Shown here: one piece after another, positions 1 through 16,187 of the stretch
Layout: each line of letters starts with the position of its first letter
Position numbering within the stretch: position 1 is the stretch's first letter
From: a virus
Taxonomy: Duplodnaviria > Heunggongvirae > Uroviricota > Caudoviricetes
DNA: 17,684 bases
Reading direction: 5' to 3' (one strand)
IMG/VR virus record: IMGVR_UViG_2667527666_000002
Coordinates: 1-17,684 of that record
The notes under the pieces: model-generated
What the model was told of the DNA's origin: nothing
Seen by the model: only the letters and a program-made list of their open reading frames with translations
Databases searched by the model: none
Translations under genes and position numbers: made by a program

Positions 1-1254
1 ATGCTGGAACAAATGGGCATTGCCGCGAAGCAAGCCTCGTATAAATTAGCGCAACTCTCCAGCCGCGAAAAAAATCGCGTGCTGGAAAAAATCGCCGATG
101 AACTGGAAGCACAAAGCGAAATCATCCTCAACGCTAACGCCCAGGATGTTGCTGACGCGCGAGCCAATGGCCTTAGCGAAGCGATGCTTGACCGTCTGGC
201 ACTGACGCCCGCACGGCTGAAAGGCATTGCCGACGATGTACGTCAGGTGTGCAACCTCGCCGATCCGGTGGGGCAGGTAATCGATGGCGGCGTACTGGAC
301 AGCGGCCTGCGTCTTGAGCGTCGTCGCGTACCGCTGGGGGTTATTGGCGTGATTTATGAAGCGCGCCCGAACGTGACGGTTGATGTCGCTTCGCTGTGCC
401 TGAAAACCGGTAATGCGGTGATCCTGCGCGGTGGCAAAGAAACGTGTCGCACTAACGCTGCAACGGTGGCGGTGATTCAGGACGCCCTGAAATCCTGCGG
501 CTTACCGGCGGGTGCCGTGCAGGCGATTGATAATCCTGACCGTGCGCTGGTCAGTGAAATGCTGCGTATGGATAAATACATCGACATGCTGATCCCGCGT
601 GGTGGCGCTGGTTTGCATAAACTGTGCCGTGAACAGTCGACAATCCCGGTGATCACAGGTGGTATAGGCGTATGCCATATTTACGTTGATGAAAGTGTAG
701 AGATCGCTGAAGCATTAAAAGTGATCGTCAACGCGAAAACTCAGCGTCCGAGCACATGTAATACGGTTGAAACGTTGCTGGTGAATAAAAACATCGCCGA
801 TAGCTTCCTGCCCGCATTAAGCAAACAAATGGCGGAAAGCGGCGTGACATTACACGCAGATGCAGCTGCACTGGCGCAGTTGCAGGCAGGCCCTGCGAAG
901 GTGGTTGCTGTTAAAGCCGAAGAGTATGACGATGAGTTTCTGTCATTAGATTTGAACGTCAAAATCGTCAGCGATCTTGACGATGCCATCGCCCATATTC
1001 GTGAACACGGCACACAACACTCCGATGCGATCCTGACCCGCGATATGCGCAACGCCCAGCGTTTTGTTAACGAAGTGGATTCGTCCGCTGTTTACGTTAA
1101 CGCCTCTACGCGTTTTACCGACGGCGGCCAGTTTGGTCTGGGTGCGGAAGTGGCGGTAAGCACACAAAAACTCCACGCGCGTGGCCCAATGGGGCTGGAA
1201 GCACTGACCACTTACAAGTGGATCGGCATTGGTGATTACACCATTCGTGCGTAA
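1..1254 (+). CDS. proA: Gamma-glutamyl phosphate reductase (glutamate-5-semialdehyde dehydrogenase), complete 417 aa
   Basis: Full-length ORF from ATG at 1 to TAA at 1252-1254; translation matches the ProA/aldehyde dehydrogenase family over its whole length; position immediately upstream of tRNA-Thr matches the proBA-thrW arrangement of E. coli. Confidence 0.95.
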
Positions 1255-1260
1255 ATAAAA

Positions 1261-1320
1261 CCGGGTGATGCAAAAGTAGCCATTTGATTCACAAGGCCAT
1301 TGACGCATCGCCCGGTTAGT
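1261..1320 (+). terminator. Candidate proA terminator: 11-bp stem (1261-1271 with 1305-1315, one G-U pair) around a long loop, followed by TTAGTTTT
   Basis: Inverted repeat ccgggtgatgc / gcatcgcccgg seen directly, T-rich tail 1316-1323. The loop is long (33 nt) and may contain the thrW promoter, so the call is weak. Confidence 0.25.
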
Positions 1321-1368
1321 TTTAACCTTGTCCACCGTGATTCACGTTCGTGAACATGTCCTTTCAGG

Positions 1369-1444
1369 GCCGATATAGCTCAGTTGGTAGAGCAGCGCAT
1401 TCGTAATGCGAAGGTCGTAGGTTCGACTCCTATTATCGGCACCA
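1369..1444 (+). tRNA. thrW: tRNA-Thr, anticodon CGU, with encoded CCA end
   Basis: 76-nt cloverleaf-compatible sequence GCCGATATAGCTCAGTTGGTAGAGC...GGTTCGACTCCTATTATCGGCACCA; anticodon loop TT-CGT-AA; T-arm GGTTCGA present. Confidence 0.93.
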
Positions 1445-1458
1445 TTTAAATCAATAAG

Positions 1459-2596
1459 TTACACATCATTAGTACCTTCCTTATTTTTTGACTGGGACAA
1501 ATTTGGGACCGATGGGTTCAGGATCGAGTCTATTTGCCGTGCGTGTTCGGTAAGGTGATTAGGTGCAAGGTGAGCATATCGACGAACCATTTCGATAGAC
1601 TCCCAGCCTCCCATTTCCTGTAACACTGACAACGGGACTCCGGCTTGAACCAGCCAGCTTGCCCAGGTGTGTCTCAAGTCGTGAAATCTGAAATCATCAA
1701 TACCAGCCCGTCTCAGCGCCGCTTTCCAGGCTGTGTTTGCGTCATACCGCATCTTCCTGACCGTTGGCGCTTTCCTTGTACACAAATACCCAACGGTGAT
1801 GATTCCCGATTTGTTTTTTCAATACGCGACATGCAGTATCATTCAGCGCAACGCCAATTGCGCGGTTTGATTTACTCTCTTCCGGGTTTATCCATGCCAC
1901 CCGGCGCTGCATGTCTATTTGTTGCCATTCAAGGTTGATGATGTTCGAGCGTCTTAAGCCTGTTGCCAGTGCAAATTCAACAACAGACTTTAATGGCTCC
2001 GGACATTCATCAATCAGCCTTTGTGCTTCATGGGGCTCCAGCCAGCGGATCCGTTTATTCTTTGGTTGAGGCACTTTAATAATTGGTGCCTTATCCAGCA
2101 TTTTCCATTCACGCTCTGCGGCTCTTAGTAGGGCCTTTATAAATGAAAGATGCGTAGCCTTTGTTGCAACGGACGCTGGTTTTGGCATGTATTCTGGAAC
2201 AGGTTTCCCTTTTTTTCTGCATGCTTCTGCCCTGAGTTTCCAGTTTTCCTCATGACGCCGGTTCGTCATTTTCTGCATTGCTGAATAAATTTTTGATTCA
2301 GTAATGTCTCTTAGTTGCATTCCTGCGAAATGTTGAAGCCAGAATCCGATCCGGCTTTTGTCATCGTCCAGTGATTTTTTATGTGCTTTCTCTTCGAGCC
2401 ACCTGATACACGCCTCCTCGAACGTCATATCAGGTATTTCACCAAGTTTGCTGACCCGCCATGCTTCAGCCTTTAGCTTGTCATGGAGCTCTGTCGCCTG
2501 CCTTTTGTCCTTTGTTCCAAGAGACTGTTTAAATCTTTTACCGTTCGGCAATGTGAAACTGGCGTACCATATTTCACCTCTGCGGAAGAGTGACAT
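1459..2596 (-). pseudogene. int: Phage tyrosine integrase, reading frame broken near 1742-1800 (N-terminal 284-aa frame plus C-terminal catalytic fragment in another frame)
   Basis: ORF 1742-2596 begins [14 protein letters not shown] with RBS GAGGAAA upstream of the ATG at 2596; the C-terminal ORF 1459-1785 carries the HxxR box ([11 protein letters not shown]) and the Tyr-containing VRRYAHL motif but lies in a different frame. The two frames overlap over 1742-1785, consistent with a 1-nt indel near aaggaaagcgcc. Confidence 0.7.
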
Positions 2597-6099: not shown

Positions 6100-6792
6100 T
6101 TAATTGTGTCGCTTAAGGGTTTGTGACTGGCTGATTAAGACCTTTCCAAAGACCATAAACCGGTGTTCATTTTCGCTGGTAATTCCCCATTCACGGTAAA
6201 TCTGGTTATCAGAAATCACCAGTAGTTTGTCAGGTATCATTTGCAGTCGTTTGACATAAATTTTATCATCAAAACCAAATACATAGATACCATCTCCATC
6301 AAACTGATTGATACTGACATCAACGAAGATGAGATCTCCTGGCTCAATGGTTGGACACATACTGTCCCCACGAACGTTGATAACTTTAATGTGATTGGCT
6401 GGCCGTCCGCCAAACATCGATACAGCATTATCAGTTCTGTATTCAATGGCATGAATCACATCAATGACATCACCGCCCTGGATAAGGCCATTTCCCGCAC
6501 TGGCACTGACATCCAGCATTTCAATACGGAATACATCCTTCACCTGCGCAACATCCTCACTAATACTGTTTTTACATACAGTATTACTTTTGACGTCTGA
6601 GGTAAAGAGATCAGCAATATCAACACCTAAGCTCCTGGCAATATTACTCAGGGCTTGTTCAGTGAATTGTTTCTGCTTACCTGTTTCCAGGCGTGAGATA
6701 TTCGCCGCATCCACTCCTATTGCTTCAGCGAGATCGGCGATTTTCATGTTCTTCGCCTGGCGAAGTTGTCTGACTCGGTTTCCTATGTTCAT
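6100..6792 (-). CDS. cI: CI-like prophage repressor (N-terminal XRE-type HTH, C-terminal S24/LexA-type self-cleaving peptidase), 230 aa
   Basis: N-terminal HTH (IADLAEAIGVDAANISRLETG); Ala-Gly cleavage-site candidate (SASAGNG); catalytic Ser in GDSM and Lys in YVKRL; divergent from a Cro-like gene. Confidence 0.9.
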   Translation of the reverse strand: MNIGNRVRQLRQAKNMKIADLAEAIGVDAANISRLETGKQKQFTEQALSNIARSLGVDIADLFTSDVKSNTVCKNSISEDVAQVKDVFRIEMLDVSASAGNGLIQGGDVIDVIHAIEYRTDNAVSMFGGRPANHIKVINVRGDSMCPTIEPGDLIFVDVSINQFDGDGIYVFGFDDKIYVKRLQMIPDKLLVISDNQIYREWGITSENEHRFMVFGKVLISQSQTLKRHN

Positions 6793-8425: not shown

Positions 8426-9316
8426 TCAGGCTGCCAGATCATCGTTTCCGATGGAAGCATAATAAGCTTTTTCTGCTTCTGCCGGAGGAGTATGGCCCAG
8501 CCTTTCCAGCAATCGTCGATTGTTATACCAGTCCACCCACGTGAGTGTGGCCAGTTCCACTTCTGCACGGTTTTTCCAGCTCTTACGGTGTATTACCTCC
8601 GCTTTGTAAAGACCATTGATGCTCTCCGCCATCGCGTTGTCATACGAGTCGCCTGTACTTCCTGTTGATGCCAGTAATCCGGCTTCCTTAAGCCGCTGTG
8701 TGTAGGCCAGCGATACATACTGAGAACCTTTATCACTGTGATGGACCGTGCCGGACGGTCGACGGGCCCATAACGCCTGCTCCAGTGCATCCAGCACGAA
8801 TGTCGTTTCCATGGACGATGAGACCCGCCACCCCACGATGTATCCGGCAAACACATCAATGATGAACGCCACATAGACGAAGCCCCGCCATGTGCTGACG
8901 TAAGTAAAATCAGCCACCCACAGCTGGTCAGGTCGTTCTGCCACGAACTGACGGTTTACGCGGTCGCCTGCGGCAACGGCTTTCCGGCTGATGGTCGTAC
9001 GGACCTTTTTACCCCGGAGAACACCGGCAAGTCCCATAACCGCCATGAGACGTGCCACAGTGCATCTGGCCACTCTGATACCTTCCCGTAACAACTGACG
9101 CCAGACTTTACGCACACCGTATACCTTGTGATTTTCATCGTATACGCGCTGTATCTCTTTCTTCAGCCAGTCATCGCGCTGCGCACGGGCACTGCGTTTA
9201 TCCGGATGATGTCGCTGTTGCTGACAGTGGTAATACGTTGACGGGGCAATATGCAGTTCGCTGCATAGCGGTCCGACCCCGTACTGCTCACGCAGCTTAT
9301 CCAGCAGTGGCATCAT
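8426..9316 (-). CDS. IS629-like transposase OrfB (DDE/integrase catalytic domain), 296 aa
   Basis: Translation [29 protein letters not shown]... with a DDE-type core (WVADFTYV ... HSDKGSQY ... [10 protein letters not shown]). Confidence 0.9.
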
Positions 9317-9639
9317 TTTTTCCAGAGGCGGTCGAACTCCGCCTTCGCAAAATAAGCGGAAGCCTGGCGAAGGATATCGTTACTGCGGCGCAGTTCACGA
9401 TTTTCACGTTCCAGCTCTTTCAGACGCTGACGTTCAGCGGTGGTGAGCCCTCCATCACCGCCCCCGGTATCCCGCTCATGCTGGCGAACCCAGACACGCA
9501 GAGTCTCCGGCGTACAGCCAATCTTTGGAGCAATGGAACAAATTGTCGCCCATTGTGAGTCATATTCGCTCTGACTTTCCAGAACCATACGGACTGCCCG
9601 TTGACGGACTTCGGGGGAAAAACGAGTATTTTTAGTCAT
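9313..9639 (-). CDS. IS629-like transposase OrfA (HTH), 108 aa
   Basis: Translation [42 protein letters not shown]...; identical to the orfA of the second copy at 17358-17684. Confidence 0.9.
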
Positions 9640-11777: not shown

Positions 11778-12773
11778 GTGACCGTGAGAGCACTACTGAC
11801 CCCTGAAATTGCCCCGCGTATGGGGATCGTATTGTTCAGGCCAGGTTCAGAGCTGATGCCCCTGTTTATGCAGGGGCGTGTCCTGCTGGAGCCTGAGCCG
11901 GAACGTTATTCATCTTTTGCCAGTGGTGCCGTTCCGGCTGCATCACAACCGCTGGCGGATGATCCTGCCGTTCGGGCCGTGTTCCGCAATGAGGCAGTGA
12001 TCCGTCGTGCTGGTGGCGTGGAATGTCTTGAAAGCTGGTTACTTCGTGAAAAAGGCTGCCAGTGGCCTCATTCCGACTGGCACAGCGAGAACATGACCAC
12101 AATGCGACACGCGCCGGGCGCAATCCGTCTGTGCTGGCACTGCGATAACCAACTGCGCGATCAGTTCACGGAACGGCTGGAATCAATGGCAACGGATAAC
12201 TGTGCCCGCTGGGTGTTGTCTGTTGTGCGTCGGGATCTCGGTTTTGATGACAGTCACGTTGTGACAATGCCGGAACTGTGCTGGTGGCTGATTCGTAATG
12301 ATCTGGCGGATGCCTTACCGGAAAGTGCAGCCCGTAAGGCACTGAGATTACCGAAGCCTGTTGTGCCGTCTGTCACCCGGGAAAGTGACCTGGTGCCTTC
12401 GGTTCCTGCCACCAGCATCATCCAGGATAAAGCGAAAAAGGTGCTGGCGCTGAAAGTGGATCCGGAGTCGCCGGACTCTTTTATGTTACGCCCAAAACGT
12501 CGCCGCTGGGTTAATGAAAAGTACACGCGATGGGTTAAGACGCAGCCGTGCGCATGTTGTGGAAAACCTGCTGATGATCCCCACCACCTGATAGGCCACG
12601 GTCAGGGTGGAATGGGGACAAAAGCGCATGACCTCTTTGTGTTGCCTTTGTGCAGAAAGCATCACGACGAGCTGCATGCGGATAATGTGGCATTCGAAGA
12701 GAAGTATGGCTCCCAGCTGGAGCTGATATTTCGTTTTATCGATCGTGCGCTGACGATTGGTGTGCTGGCCTGA
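11778..12773 (+). CDS. DUF968-like nin-region protein, 331 aa, with C-terminal Cys/His (HNH-like) cluster
   Basis: C-terminal motif [43 protein letters not shown]; exact start uncertain (GTG at 11778 or 11784). Confidence 0.65.
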
Positions 12774-12790
12774 TTTTGTGGAGAAAGTTG

Positions 12791-13174
12791 ATGCGTGATA
12801 TTCAGATGGTTCTTGAGCGTTGGGGAGCGTGGGCGGCTAATAATCATGAAGATGTGACCTGGTCGTCCATTGCCGCCGGTTTTAAGGGATTAATTCCTTC
12901 AAAAGTAAAATCTCGCCCGCAATGTTGTGACGATGACGCGATGATCATTTGCGGGTGCATGGCCCGTCTGAAAAAGAACAACAGCGATTTGCACGATTTA
13001 TTAGTAGATTATTATGTAGTCGGTATGACATTCATGTCACTGGCAGGTAAGCATTGCTGCTCTGATGGTTATATCGGGAAAAGGTTACAAAAAGCTGAGG
13101 GCATAATTGAAGGGATGTTAATGGCATTAGATATCTGGTTAGAGATGGATATCGTTGTTAATAACTCTAATTAA
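12791..13174 (+). CDS. Q: Late-gene antitermination protein Q (short Q family), 127 aa
   Basis: Start at the ATG at 12791 with GGAG 8 nt upstream (the ORF track's 12776 start is a TTG); last gene of the nin-like block, in the position Q occupies upstream of the lysis cassette. Confidence 0.7.
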
Positions 13175-13207
13175 TATGCCAATTGTTTACTAAAAATTAT
13201 TAAAAAT

Positions 13208-13225
13208 GGGGCGTTGAGACGCCCC
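13208..13225 (-). terminator. Candidate intrinsic terminator for the porin gene (stem GGGGCGT / ACGCCCC, 4-nt loop, followed on the minus strand by AUUUUUAAUAAUUUUU)
   Basis: Hairpin and U-rich tract read directly; lies about 140 nt beyond the porin stop, after three further hairpins. Confidence 0.4.
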
Positions 13226-13363
13226 CAAAAATAAAGGGTAATATATAACAGAAGGTTTATATAGTTAGAAGCAAGGTTGTGCTTCTAAAGGAAGTGGCTT
13301 GAGGGAGCCACTTATATGTTGGGGAGGCAACGCCTCCCGCAACATATCTTTTTCGTAATCAGA

Positions 13364-14446
13364 TTAGAACTGGTAAACCAGACCTACAGCAACGATGTCA
13401 TCAGTATCAATACCAGCTGTTTTGGTAAACTTACTATCGTCAATTAAGTTGATTTTGTAATCAACAAAAGTGGACATGTTTTTATTAAAGTAGTAAGTAG
13501 CACCGACATCGACATACTTGACTAAGTCTCGGTCACCATGAACACCAAGGTCTTTACCTTTTGACTGAAGGTAAGCAACAGATGGGCGCAGACCGAAGTC
13601 AAACTGATATTGTGCTACTGCTTCAAAGTTTTGTGCTTTGTTTGCAATATGGTTATTACCAAAAACGGTCATATTCTGAGTTTCAGAATATGTGGTAGCC
13701 AGATAGATATTGTTCGCATCATATTTCAGGCCTGCAGCCCATACTTCCGCATTTTTGCCGGAGGCATTGAATTTGCTCTTACCATAGGCGACCTGACCGT
13801 CAGTGCGATCTGATTTAGCATAGGTTGCACCCACGCCGAATCCTTCATACTCATAAGTAGTGGAGAAACCGAAACCATCACCATTGGCTTCAGTTACGTC
13901 AGTGCGGTCATTTTTACCCTGATACTGAGCAGCAAAGTTCAGGCCATCGACCAGACCAAAGAAGTCGTTGTTACGATAAGTTGCAACACCAGTAGTGCGA
14001 CCAGTCATGAACACATCTGTTTGGGTCCAGGTATCACCACCGAATTCTGGCAGGACGTCAGTCCACGCACCGATGTCGTATGCTACACCGTAGTTACGGC
14101 CGTAATCGATTGAGCCGTAATCACCAAATTTCAGGCCTGCAAATGCAAGACGGGTTTTGTCTTTGGAAGAACCTTGAGATTCAGCGCGGTTGCCTTTGAA
14201 TTCATATTCCCACTGACCGAAACCAGTCAGTTGATCGTTGATTTGGGTTTCACCTTTGAAGCCAAGACGGGCATAAGTAGTATCACCATCATCTGCATCA
14301 TTAGAGGAGAAGTAGTGCTTAGCATTAACTTTCCCGTACAGATCCAGCTTGTTACTGTCTTTATTATAAATTTCAGCTGCCTGAGCAGACATCGCCATCA
14401 GTACTGATGCAGCTACAGCAGAAATTGCCACTGTTAATTTTTTCAT
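13364..14446 (-). CDS. General-diffusion outer-membrane porin, OmpC/NmpC/Lc family, 360 aa precursor
   Basis: Signal peptide ending AQA-AE; mature N-terminus [17 protein letters not shown] typical of OmpC-family porins; C-terminal ...VGLVYQF beta-barrel signature; opposite strand to flanking phage late genes. Confidence 0.92.
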
Positions 14447-14874
14447 CGTGAGCCCTTTTTTTTGAACTATTATTAAAAAATGATGTCACTGCGCGATAAA
14501 TATTCATCTAATCAATGTGATTATTTCAAGATGTAAGTTTTGGTTTCTCGTTTGATTTGTGAAGTAGATCTCTATTTTTATCTGAACTTTTTTCTATCGA
14601 ATCCTATTCATAGCTCTTGGCTGAATAAAAATAAATCTATTAGCCAATTTATACTAACGGTTGTTATTTATAAGTGCTCTATAATTTGAAGGTTCAATTT
14701 AAATCGGCTAAAAATAACACTGGAAATTATTTGTTGGTTATTTGTTGAGATTTGCTTATGTATTTGTAGTGGTGTTTTCAATACTCGGTAGCATTCTCGC
14801 AAATATCATTTAGTGGTTTACGTACGTAAAAAATTGGTTATGCTGTTAAGAGTGGTTACTTCGTCACACAGCTT

Positions 14875-14908
14875 AAACCCGCCGTCGAGCGGGTTTTTCC
14901 ATTTTTTG
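14875..14908 (+). terminator. Intrinsic terminator (8-bp stem AAACCCGC / GCGGGTTT, then TTTTTCCATTTTTT), candidate tR' about 115 bp upstream of the holin gene
   Basis: Perfect stem followed by a T-rich tract on the plus strand; no plus-strand gene ends upstream, consistent with a short terminated late-promoter leader transcript. Confidence 0.6.
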
Positions 14909-15019
14909 AGTCTCGATATTAGCTGATAACCCAATACCTGAGTTATTCACTGACTTCGAGTCTGTTACGTTTCGTAGTATTCCCTCAATTTACACCCGCT
15001 TTGTCTGCGAGGTGGGGTT

Positions 15020-15235
15020 ATGAAATCCATGGATAAGTTAACAACGGGTGTCGCCTATGGCACCTCAGCAGGTAGTGCCGGGTACTGGTTTTTACAGCTG
15101 CTAGATAAAGTCACGCCCTCACAGTGGGCGGCAATTGGAGTGCTGGGTAGCCTGGTATTTGGCCTGCTGACGTACCTGACAAACCTTTATTTCAAGATTA
15201 AAGAAGATAAGCGTAAGGCTGCGAGAGGTGAATAA
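15020..15235 (+). CDS. S: Phage-21-type class II holin (pinholin), 71 aa
   Basis: Two predicted TM helices with the glycine-zipper-like [10 protein letters not shown]; basic C-terminus [11 protein letters not shown]; stop overlaps the endolysin start (TAATG). Confidence 0.9.
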
Positions 15236-15732
15236 TGTCGCCATCATTACGCAAGGCTGTAGCAGCTGCTATTGGTGGTGGGGCTGTTGCCATAGCGTCT
15301 GTGCTCATCACTGGTCCGAGTGGTGACGATGGTCTGGAAGGTGTCAGCTACATACCATATAAAGATATTGTTGGTGTATGGACTGTATGTCACGGGCATA
15401 CAGGAAAAGACATCATGCTCGGTAAAACGTATACCAAAGCAGAATGCAAAGCACTCTTGAATAAAGACCTTGCCACTGTCGCCAGACAAATTAACCCGTA
15501 CATCGAAGTCGATATACCGGAAACAACGCGCGGCGCTCTTTACTCATTCGTTTACAACGTGGGTGCTGGCAATTTCAGAACATCGACGCTTCTTCGCAAA
15601 ATAAACCAGGGCGATATCAAAGGCGCATGTGATCAGCTACGGCGCTGGACATACGCTGGCGGTAATCAATGGAAAGGACTGATGACTCGCCGTGAGATTG
15701 AGCGTGAAGTCTGTTTGTGGGGGAAACAATGA
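15235..15732 (+). CDS. R: SAR (signal-anchor-release) endolysin, lysozyme-like, 165 aa
   Basis: N-terminal Gly/Ala-rich SAR domain ([20 protein letters not shown]) followed by a lysozyme-type catalytic domain; stop overlaps the Rz start (ATGA). Confidence 0.92.
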
Positions 15733-16187
15733 GCAGAGTAACCGCGATTATCTCCGCTCTGGTTATCTGCATCATCGTCTGCCTGTCATGGGCTGTTAAT
15801 CATTACCGTGATAACGCCATTACCTACAAAGCCCAGCGCGACAAAAATGTCAGAGAACTGGAGAAGGCGAACGCCACCATCGCTGACATGCGGAAGCGTC
15901 AACGTGATGTAGCAGAACTCGATGCAAGATACACAAAGGAGCTTGCTGATGCTAACGCGACTATCGAAAGTCTCCGTGCTGATGTTTCTGCTGGGCGTAA
16001 GCGCCTGCAAGTCGCCGCCACCTGTGCAAAGTCAACGACCGGAGCCAGCGGCATGGGCGATGGAGAAAGCCCAGGACTTACAGCAGATGCTGAACTCAAT
16101 TATTACCGTCTCCGAAGTGGAATCGACAAGATAACCGCGCAGGTTAACTACCTGCAGGAATACATCAGGACGCAATGCCTGAAATAA
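15729..16187 (+). CDS. Rz: Rz i-spanin, 152 aa
   Basis: ATG at 15729 overlapping the endolysin stop; N-terminal TM helix ([17 protein letters not shown]) followed by a coiled-coil-like periplasmic domain. Confidence 0.8.
15949..16134 (+). CDS. Rz1: Rz1 o-spanin lipoprotein, about 61 aa, embedded in the +1 frame of Rz
   Basis: Signal peptide [20 protein letters not shown] with lipobox VSAC, then proline-rich [13 protein letters not shown]; lies entirely within Rz in a different frame. Confidence 0.7.

Follow-up and report, generated by a model that had tools for sequence, protein, structure and literature searches.

The window analysed here, that is the whole stretch of 17,684 nucleotides taken from the IMG/VR virus record IMGVR_UViG_2667527666_000002, carries a lambdoid prophage integrated at thrW, and a short block within it (positions 14817-14908) is very probably the Q-dependent late unit, consisting of the promoter pR', a leader and the terminator tR', of a prophage of the DLP12/PA-2/434B type. 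The canonical layout, in which such a unit adjoins the gene for the antiterminator Q, is departed from here, as 1,642 bp separate the stop codon of Q from the -35 element and 1,676 bp separate it from the predicted start, but the departure is one of layout and not of mechanism. An earlier note on this DNA had proposed a terminated leader in the style of pR'-tR', split from Q by a porin gene and displaced by about 1.5 kb; the distance was close enough to the measured one, and the proposal itself gains support from homology to phage 933W, from conservation across related loci and from palindromes that go with the Q allele, the dependence on Q being a prediction. As a regulatory system the late unit is ordinary and of a kind that is well understood, and the locus is already known, since it is that of DLP12 in Escherichia coli K-12, of PA-2 and of 434B.

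The putative late unit

The unit lies in a 573-bp gap (14447-15019) that runs from the start codon of the porin gene to the start codon of the holin gene. No plus-strand open reading frame (ORF) of at least 50 amino acids occurs in this interval, in which the only small ATG-initiated ORFs are two of 18 and 28 codons, and in a composition profile the GC content falls to 27-31% over 14400-14800, as against 45-56% in the flanking genes. The ORF list and the profile thus agree with the first description of the interval as AT-rich and free of plus-strand genes, just as ORF calls and Pfam matches agree with the placing of the end of Q at 13174 and of the porin gene in between.

Sigma-70 RNA polymerase would start at about 14851 from TTTACG-16 bp-TATGCT and, without Q, would stop at the hairpin and U-tract of 14875-14908, leaving a leader RNA of about 55 nt (range 50-58 nt). 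Q, supplied by the early operon (12791-13174) and diffusible, would most likely bind the perfect palindrome TTTACGTACGTAAA, which overlaps the -35 element, would load onto polymerase that is presumed to pause in the conserved leader, and would carry it past tR' into the genes for holin, endolysin and Rz. The separation of 1.6 kb should not matter because Q is a diffusible protein, and Q and promoter stand 1.64 kb apart because an AT-rich, self-contained porin cassette sits at the junction between Q and pR'.

The plus-strand terminator at 14875-14908, from which the earlier note had set out, was recovered by scanning as well as by folding: its stem (14875-14896) has eight pairs, five of them G-C, around a loop of 6, the tail reads TTCCATTTTT with the T-run extending to 14908, and the fold amounts to about -12 kcal/mol. 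The note had held that no other plus-strand terminator before the lysis genes was convincing, which is not so, a stronger one being present at 13314-13358. The palindrome TTTACGTACGTAAA has a single exact match in the window and the leader block TAAGAGTGGTTACTTCGTCACA is likewise unique there, and no copy of the late unit, the palindrome or the leader was found beside Q in the window, the region 13175-13363 included.

The Q protein matches PF06530 over the full length of the model (Pfam) and the solved Q21 chains in the PDB with an E-value of 1.5e-7, and over residues 1-126 it is 77.8-81% identical to the Q proteins of Shiga toxin (Stx) phages, the value for 933W Q being 78%. On the strength of these matches we assign it to the Q21/Q933W family, as that family is named in bioRxiv 10.1101/651190. 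Homologues are alike up to ...LEMD and then continue into locus-specific C-terminal tails of 0-24 residues, so that the tail seems dispensable; in the window the last seven codons (IVVNNSN; region of 13150-13174) are inserted AT-rich DNA. Phage 82 was considered as a comparator and dropped, its Q (229 aa, X92588) being of a different family.

Homology to phage 933W and conservation across related loci

A BLAST search against 2.3 Gb matched window positions 14816-14898 to positions 20,665-20,746 of phage 933W at 77% (E 1e-7), the similarity across promoter, leader and terminator covering 83 nt at 77.1-78.3% with E-values from 1e-7 to 3e-9, and the matched segment underlies the 933W features promoter, terminator, Q and qut (pR' at 20,666-20,693, qut at 20,707-20,714 and the first terminator at 20,726-20,748). 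When the two sequences are aligned base by base (TTTACGATCGTAAAAATCTGCATATCATGATAAGAGTGGTTACATTGCCACGCAGTCGAACCCGCCGATGCGCGGGTTTTTTT in 933W and TTTACGTACGTAAAAAATTGGTTATGCTGTTAAGAGTGGTTACTTCGTCACACAGCTTAAACCCGCCGTCGAGCGGGTTTTT in the window), the -35 element, the spacer length, the -10 element, the leader and the terminator all fall in register. With positions 14790-14925 as the query, matches were obtained in 363 phage records, in about 280 of which, these being records of Stx phages, 14816-14898 corresponds, at 75-78% identity, to a segment at the very end of Q.

The leader block TAAGAGTGGTTACTTCGTCACA is identical or nearly so across eight homologues found by BLAST. More than 119 loci came from a scan of IMG/VR with the leader core TAAGAGTGGTTACNNNGNCAC, and 107 loci, drawn from IMG/VR and the reference loci, are preceded on the same strand by a gene for a Q of this family. 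As the core served as the search pattern, its invariance among the IMG/VR loci is in part built in; the eight BLAST sequences show it independently. A locus search made with the Q alignment returned near-identical loci of the porin type only and so provided no unbiased sample of the family. Among the 63-71 distinct homologous leaders, T1, A2 and T6 of the -10 element are kept in nearly all variants, and a hairpin followed by a T-run is found by a strict rule in 50 of 71 distinct leaders versus 21 of 1,420 shuffles, most of the leaders that the rule misses having visibly bulged hairpins. The terminator stems among the distinct leaders include at least six unrelated sequences. That stems are replaced and terminators remain, with palindrome and A-tract also kept, points to conservation of function and not merely of sequence. 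The string TGnTAAGAG was also considered as an extended -10 promoter and rejected, its hexamer being without T6 whereas the hexamer upstream keeps T1, A2 and T6.

In one IMG/VR locus (L163) the Q is identical to that of the window at 98% or more of its residues and the porin gene is intact, yet the 5 kb downstream are without a leader core; its late promoter could have been deleted or replaced.

Palindromes matched to Q alleles

An inverted repeat with an A-tract, overlapping the -35 element, is found at the same position in the related loci as well (L003, L004 and L007-L130 in our numbering). When the Q proteins were clustered at 75% identity and 13 clusters were compared, each proved to have an inverted repeat of its own, the centre of which always lies some 27 bp before the predicted start. 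The repeat is TTTAC(G/A)-NN-CGTAAA in the cluster that holds the window and 933W (46 loci), GCGG-T-CCGC in a second cluster (27+2 loci) and GCGTACGC in a third (15 loci), smaller clusters having TGTTATAACA, TGTCATGACA, TGGAATTCCA and TTCGT-T-ACGAA. Within a cluster the repeat and the A-tract are conserved, and the spacer to the -10 element, the upstream flank and the cargo vary, the pairing of Q with palindrome holding across all 13 clusters and more than 20 different cargoes.

Phage Lambda_ev087, with a Q that is 88% identical and without the leader core, was examined as a counter-example and set aside as such, for the matching palindrome TTTACAATCGTAAA followed by a good -10 element (TATGAT) was found 1.88 kb after Q, with a lipocalin gene and a ybgA-like gene in between. 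This locus was not selected by means of the leader motif and therefore constitutes an independent case. The pairing is correlative, and the palindrome TTTACGTACGTAAA is a candidate for the element that Q binds. A direct-repeat Q-binding element (QBE) like that of Q21 was looked for as well, and no convincing 8-bp direct repeat was found. Matching Q to its palindrome offers a cheap route to late promoters and candidate Q-binding sites in prophages.

Points against the proposed unit and alternative readings

Several observations weigh against the reading of 14817-14908 as a Q-dependent late unit. The promoter has just 8 of 12 consensus matches, for which reason it was not called by the promoter scan, and a 16-bp spacer; a clear -10-like hexamer that combines A2 with T6 is missing at the canonical distance for a pause, the candidates being AAGAGT at -2 to +4, an extended-type TGGTTACTT at +3 to +11 and CAGCTT at +19 to +24; and the stability of tR' is just modestly beyond that of shuffled sequences (z -1.4 to -2.0). 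Neither 5' nor 3' transcript ends for the unit were found in the K-12 datasets examined (3' ends of Adams 2021, the Cappable-seq supplements of Ettwiller 2016 and SMRT-Cappable-seq), the last of which selects long RNAs, so that a leader of 55 nt would be missed, and gave the porin start only. The 933W features promoter, qut and terminators carry the label "putative" in their own record. Wagner and co-workers (2001) reportedly found the 933W pR' to be needed for Stx2 expression. A palindromic mode of binding, moreover, would depart from the one established for the family, in which Q21 binds a direct repeat (bioRxiv 10.1101/651190). Finally, published work on DLP12 (Rueggeberg and co-workers, 2015) reportedly places the promoter essDp elsewhere and assigns it to sigma-E; by primer arithmetic its start would fall at about 14496, some 355 bp upstream of the pR' homologue.

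This last point gives rise to the alternative that survives best, although we consider it improbable, namely that the lysis genes are transcribed mainly from this sigma-E-type promoter, essDp, and that the pR'-like element 355 bp downstream is an internal terminator, a loading site or a relic. The region '-121 to +650' of essDp was amplified with a forward primer from K-12 position 576,753 (PMC7918800 and its Table S1), arithmetic on which places the +1 at about 576,874, equivalent to about 14496 in the window; the +1 position is thus itself derived from primers. A GAACT motif lies upstream of it at 14465-14469. Rueggeberg and co-workers (2013, 2015) reportedly observed activity of this intergenic region that depends on the DLP12 Q and on RpoE, with the Q homologue activating essDp, and proposed that RpoE uses this promoter. 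We nonetheless keep this alternative low because position 14496 belongs to the porin cassette and has no counterpart in phages of the 933W type, the Q proteins of which share 78-81% identity with that of the window. The derived +1 also stands just 4 bp away from where the porin transcript was mapped to begin on the other strand, and activity seen there may be that of the porin promoter region; the essDp +1 (about 14496; K-12 576,874) and the porin start (14492; K-12 576,870) may indeed be one AT-rich promoter region read both ways. Q loading as it is known requires a sigma-70-dependent pause beside the binding site, and a transcript begun at 14496 would in any case still meet tR'. If the primer arithmetic holds, the late unit at 14817-14908 is a different site from the published one, and its placement may revise where Q is thought to act in DLP12.

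Much less probable again is a late transcript that starts directly after Q and runs antisense through the porin gene, with no start in 14450-14870. Polymerase modified by Q could cross 1.6 kb and several terminators, and the viability of 434B would fit this arrangement as well as a displaced promoter. The stretch 13175-13363, however, contains no promoter-like site, palindrome or copy of the leader and does contain a strong plus-strand terminator and the porin terminator, and in 72 related loci the unit stands beside the late genes and not beside Q. Equally hard to credit is the idea that the conserved block belongs to the cargo, as a regulatory site of the porin gene or a small independent RNA gene: a second CRP site of the PA-2 record does map to 14851-14871, which is the conserved late leader, and the minus strand at 14830-14802 allows a reading as TTTACG-17 bp-GATATT, but the block occurs with more than 20 unrelated cargoes and without any cargo, 360 bp lie between it and the mapped porin start, a scan of 12500-15500 brought no Rfam family to threshold (its sole match, to Trp leader, is terminator-driven and was rejected, scoring 20.8 bits where the gathering score is 41, E 0.57), and the right half-site of the CRP-like sequence, TCACA, is CCACG in 933W, so that we reject a CRP site here and attribute the similarity to the leader.

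The porin cassette between Q and pR'

The porin gene, annotated lc in PA-2 and nmpC in K-12 and 434B, is enclosed by signals of its own. On its Q-proximal side two opposed terminators close the cassette. The minus-strand hairpin (13225-13208) folds at -14 kcal/mol (z -3.07); the plus-strand terminator (13314-13358), located 140 bp past Q and before the 3' end of the porin gene, is considerably more stable (-25.3 kcal/mol, z -4.45, with none of 200 shuffles as stable) and had been missed by the scan because of a one-base bulge. It probably serves to end the early transcript that includes Q before this would run antisense into the porin gene. The 190-bp stretch 13175-13363, in which both lie, we take to be the IpeX small-RNA region of DLP12; the Rfam scan over 12500-15500 gave no match in it.

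On the other side, SMRT-Cappable-seq in K-12 identified an nmpC-insH transcript (operon b0553, b0552) that is read from the reverse strand and begins at 576,870 (PMC6131387, Supplementary Data 2), and this position maps to 14492 in the window, 45 nt before the porin ATG. The divergent porin promoter that had been expected within the interval is therefore there, albeit at its far left. A CRP-like site at 14555-14575 has its centre about 73 bp upstream of the porin start, plausibly a typical position for an activator. The spacer that follows it, up to the late unit, yielded no ORF, Rfam family or consensus promoter by our scans. The DNA between Q and the late promoter has a GC content of 40%, with 27-34% in its flanks, versus about 50% elsewhere. 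With its own promoter, its own terminator, an atypical composition and its absence from 933W-type loci, the porin cassette fits the description of a moron; it is self-contained, sits exactly at the junction of Q and pR', and has replaced the last codons of Q.

A possible cargo hot spot at the junction of Q and its promoter

The layout of the window recurs with other genes in place of the porin. Among the 107 related loci, 35 have the textbook layout, with the Q stop codon 1-41 bp before the leader core, and the other 72 have a gap of 627-3,044 bp between Q and core with cargo at the same junction. More than 20 cassettes with no relation to one another occupy the gaps; they are for the most part antisense to Q and of 31-42% GC, and in all these split loci the conserved unit stays beside the late genes, not beside Q. 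Porin is the cargo at 28 loci. The others include the Kiwa system (KwaB, E 2e-126), a candidate system with a KAP-NTPase (PDC-S20, E 1e-177), a C5 methylase with an OLD/HEC-04-like ATPase, an HNH protein (PDC-M68A), an NA37-family protein, lipoproteins, a hydrolase, and several gene pairs without a family match, each encoding a membrane protein and a protein of about 310 aa. In 933W the Q stop codon falls inside the palindrome, which together with the divergent Q tails implies that cargo enters where there is almost no intergenic DNA and in doing so rewrites the end of Q.

The gap of one IMG/VR locus (L105) holds five plus-strand genes, among them one for a second, unrelated Q-like protein of 184 aa, which suggests two antiterminator genes upstream of a single late promoter.

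In morons and in prophage defence hot spots such as those of P2/P4 (PMC9122126), as here, a fixed junction between conserved functions receives interchangeable, AT-rich, self-transcribed cargo that includes defence genes; unlike there, the junction in the present loci comes between the gene for a regulator and the promoter that this regulator targets. We offer as a tentative proposal, and as a whole a rather doubtful one, that the junction of Q and promoter is a dedicated cargo hot spot in phages of the Q21/Q933W family, filled mostly by antisense, AT-rich, self-transcribed cassettes, that an allele-specific palindromic Q site, unlike the direct repeat of Q21, keeps Q and promoter matched across it, and that the Q-responsive site of K-12 is 577,195-577,286 and not the published essDp. 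A limited literature search found no description of a hot spot between Q and pR' or of the DLP12 late promoter, and the wider pattern of cargo at this junction combined with allele-specific palindromes might be new. If it holds, the junction would be a place where defence and conversion genes gather, insulated from both early and late phage transcription.

Comparison with known late units

The locus in the window has the same gene order as DLP12 (quuD-nmpC-essD), 434B and PA-2 (lc) and is essentially the same locus, the interval 14447-15019 being 98.6% identical to that of K-12 DLP12 and 434B and 93.9% identical to that of PA-2. K-12 and 434B differ in carrying IS5 in the porin gene, which brings the distance from the Q stop codon to the leader core to 2,886 bp, whereas the porin gene of the window is intact. 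Plaque-forming 434B carries Q, the late promoter and the lysis segment from DLP12 (PMC9119081), and this shows that the module of Q, late promoter and lysis genes works in a live phage with the 2.9-kb gap included. Of 5,426 complete E. coli genomes, 2,356 contain the interval with a coverage of at least 80%, so the late unit would serve the lysis genes of a prophage found in almost half of them, and a late promoter is annotated in none of the K-12, 434B and PA-2 records, an annotation gap. The unit maps to K-12 577,195-577,286, which supplies exact positions for work on the DLP12 lysis genes, linked as these are to biofilm and vesicle phenotypes.

Phage 933W (AF125520, 20,666-20,748) shares with the window the -35 element TTTACG, the 16-bp spacer, the palindrome, the leader block (TAAGAGTGGTTAC) and a CCCGC/GCGGG terminator, and the mechanism is expected to be the same. 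The leader of the annotated 933W unit measures about 50 nt. In contrast to the window, where the unit lies 1.64 kb off behind the porin gene, the 933W unit overlaps the 3' end of Q. Its Q has 157 aa as against 127, the tails differing after LEMD, its -10 element is TATCAT and not TATGCT, and downstream come tRNA genes and stx where the window has the holin gene.

Phage 21 resembles the window in the Pfam family of its Q, in a binding site between or overlapping the -35 and -10 elements, in S21-type lysis genes downstream and in a short leader to an intrinsic terminator, the experimentally annotated distance from start to terminator end being 50 nt. It differs in that its QBE consists of two 8-bp subsites in direct repeat (ATTGAGCA and AATGAGCA) whereas the element in the window is an inverted repeat, and in that Q21 has 162 aa and the promoter adjoins its gene. 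The architecture is shared, but the DNA of the two units cannot be aligned, and phage 21 pR' was for this reason rejected as a DNA comparator. The pR'-6S RNA-tR' system of lambda is similar in its logic, a constitutive promoter giving rise to a terminated leader and Q allowing transcription to continue into lysis and structural genes, and unlike in its Q family (PF03589), in a leader of 194 nt as against about 55 nt, in the absence of sequence similarity and in a promoter that adjoins Q.

Layout of the window

The features located in the window are collected in Table 1.

Table 1. Features of the prophage locus, with positions in the window and the basis or details of each assignment
Feature	Position	Strand	Basis or details
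proA-like gene	1-1254		start of window
tRNA-Thr (CGU)	1369-1444		beside prophage
Integrase ORF, 284 aa	within 1-2596		next to proA-like gene and tRNA-Thr
cI-like repressor gene	6100-6792
IS3-family insertion sequence	8426-9639	-	rve-domain transposase (296 aa) and upstream ORF (108 aa)
Dam-like, KilA-N and DUF968 genes	between IS3-family transposase and Q
Q antiterminator gene, 127 aa	12791-13174	+	PF06530, E 4.5e-53
Intrinsic terminator closing porin cassette	13198-13225	-	hairpin 13225-13208, then T-run; 7 pairs, 6 G-C
Intrinsic terminator after Q	13314-13358	+	15-bp bulged hairpin (13314-13353) and CUUUUU
Porin gene (lc/nmpC type), 360 aa	13364-14446	-	PF00267, E 1.9e-151
Porin promoter and 5' untranslated region (45 nt)	14447-14530	-	start at about 14492
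Porin -10 element AATATT	14504-14499	-	read from sequence
Porin -35 element, weak	near 14529-14524	-	read from sequence
CRP-like site ATTTGTGAAGTAGATCTCTAT (TGTGA-N6-TCTCT)	14555-14575		annotated in PA-2 record J02580; identical in window
AT-rich spacer, about 240 bp	14576-14816		27-37% GC; between two divergent promoters
Candidate Q-binding element: perfect palindrome TTTACGTACGTAAA and A-tract	14817-14836 (palindrome 14817-14830)	+
Putative pR' -35 element TTTACG	14817-14822	+	left arm of palindrome; alignment with 933W
Putative pR' -10 element TATGCT	14839-14844	+	16 bp after -35; aligns with annotated 933W -10 TATCAT
Predicted late start	A14851 (range 14849-14852)	+	placed by -10 spacing only
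Conserved start/leader block TAAGAGTGGTTACTTCGTCACA	14847-14868	+	presumed sigma-dependent pause site
Putative tR' intrinsic terminator	14875-14908	+	stem AAACCCGC/GCGGGTTT, loop 6, UUUUUCCAUUUUUU
Holin/antiholin gene, S21-type	15020-15235	+	Pfam (lysis genes: PF04971, PF00959, PF03245) and 434B annotation
Signal-arrest-release (SAR) type lysozyme gene	15235-15732	+	as for holin/antiholin
Rz gene	15717-16187	+	as for holin/antiholin

At the left end of the prophage the integrase may be truncated, given the length of its ORF. The insertion of an IS3-family element in the early/replication region means that the prophage may be defective.

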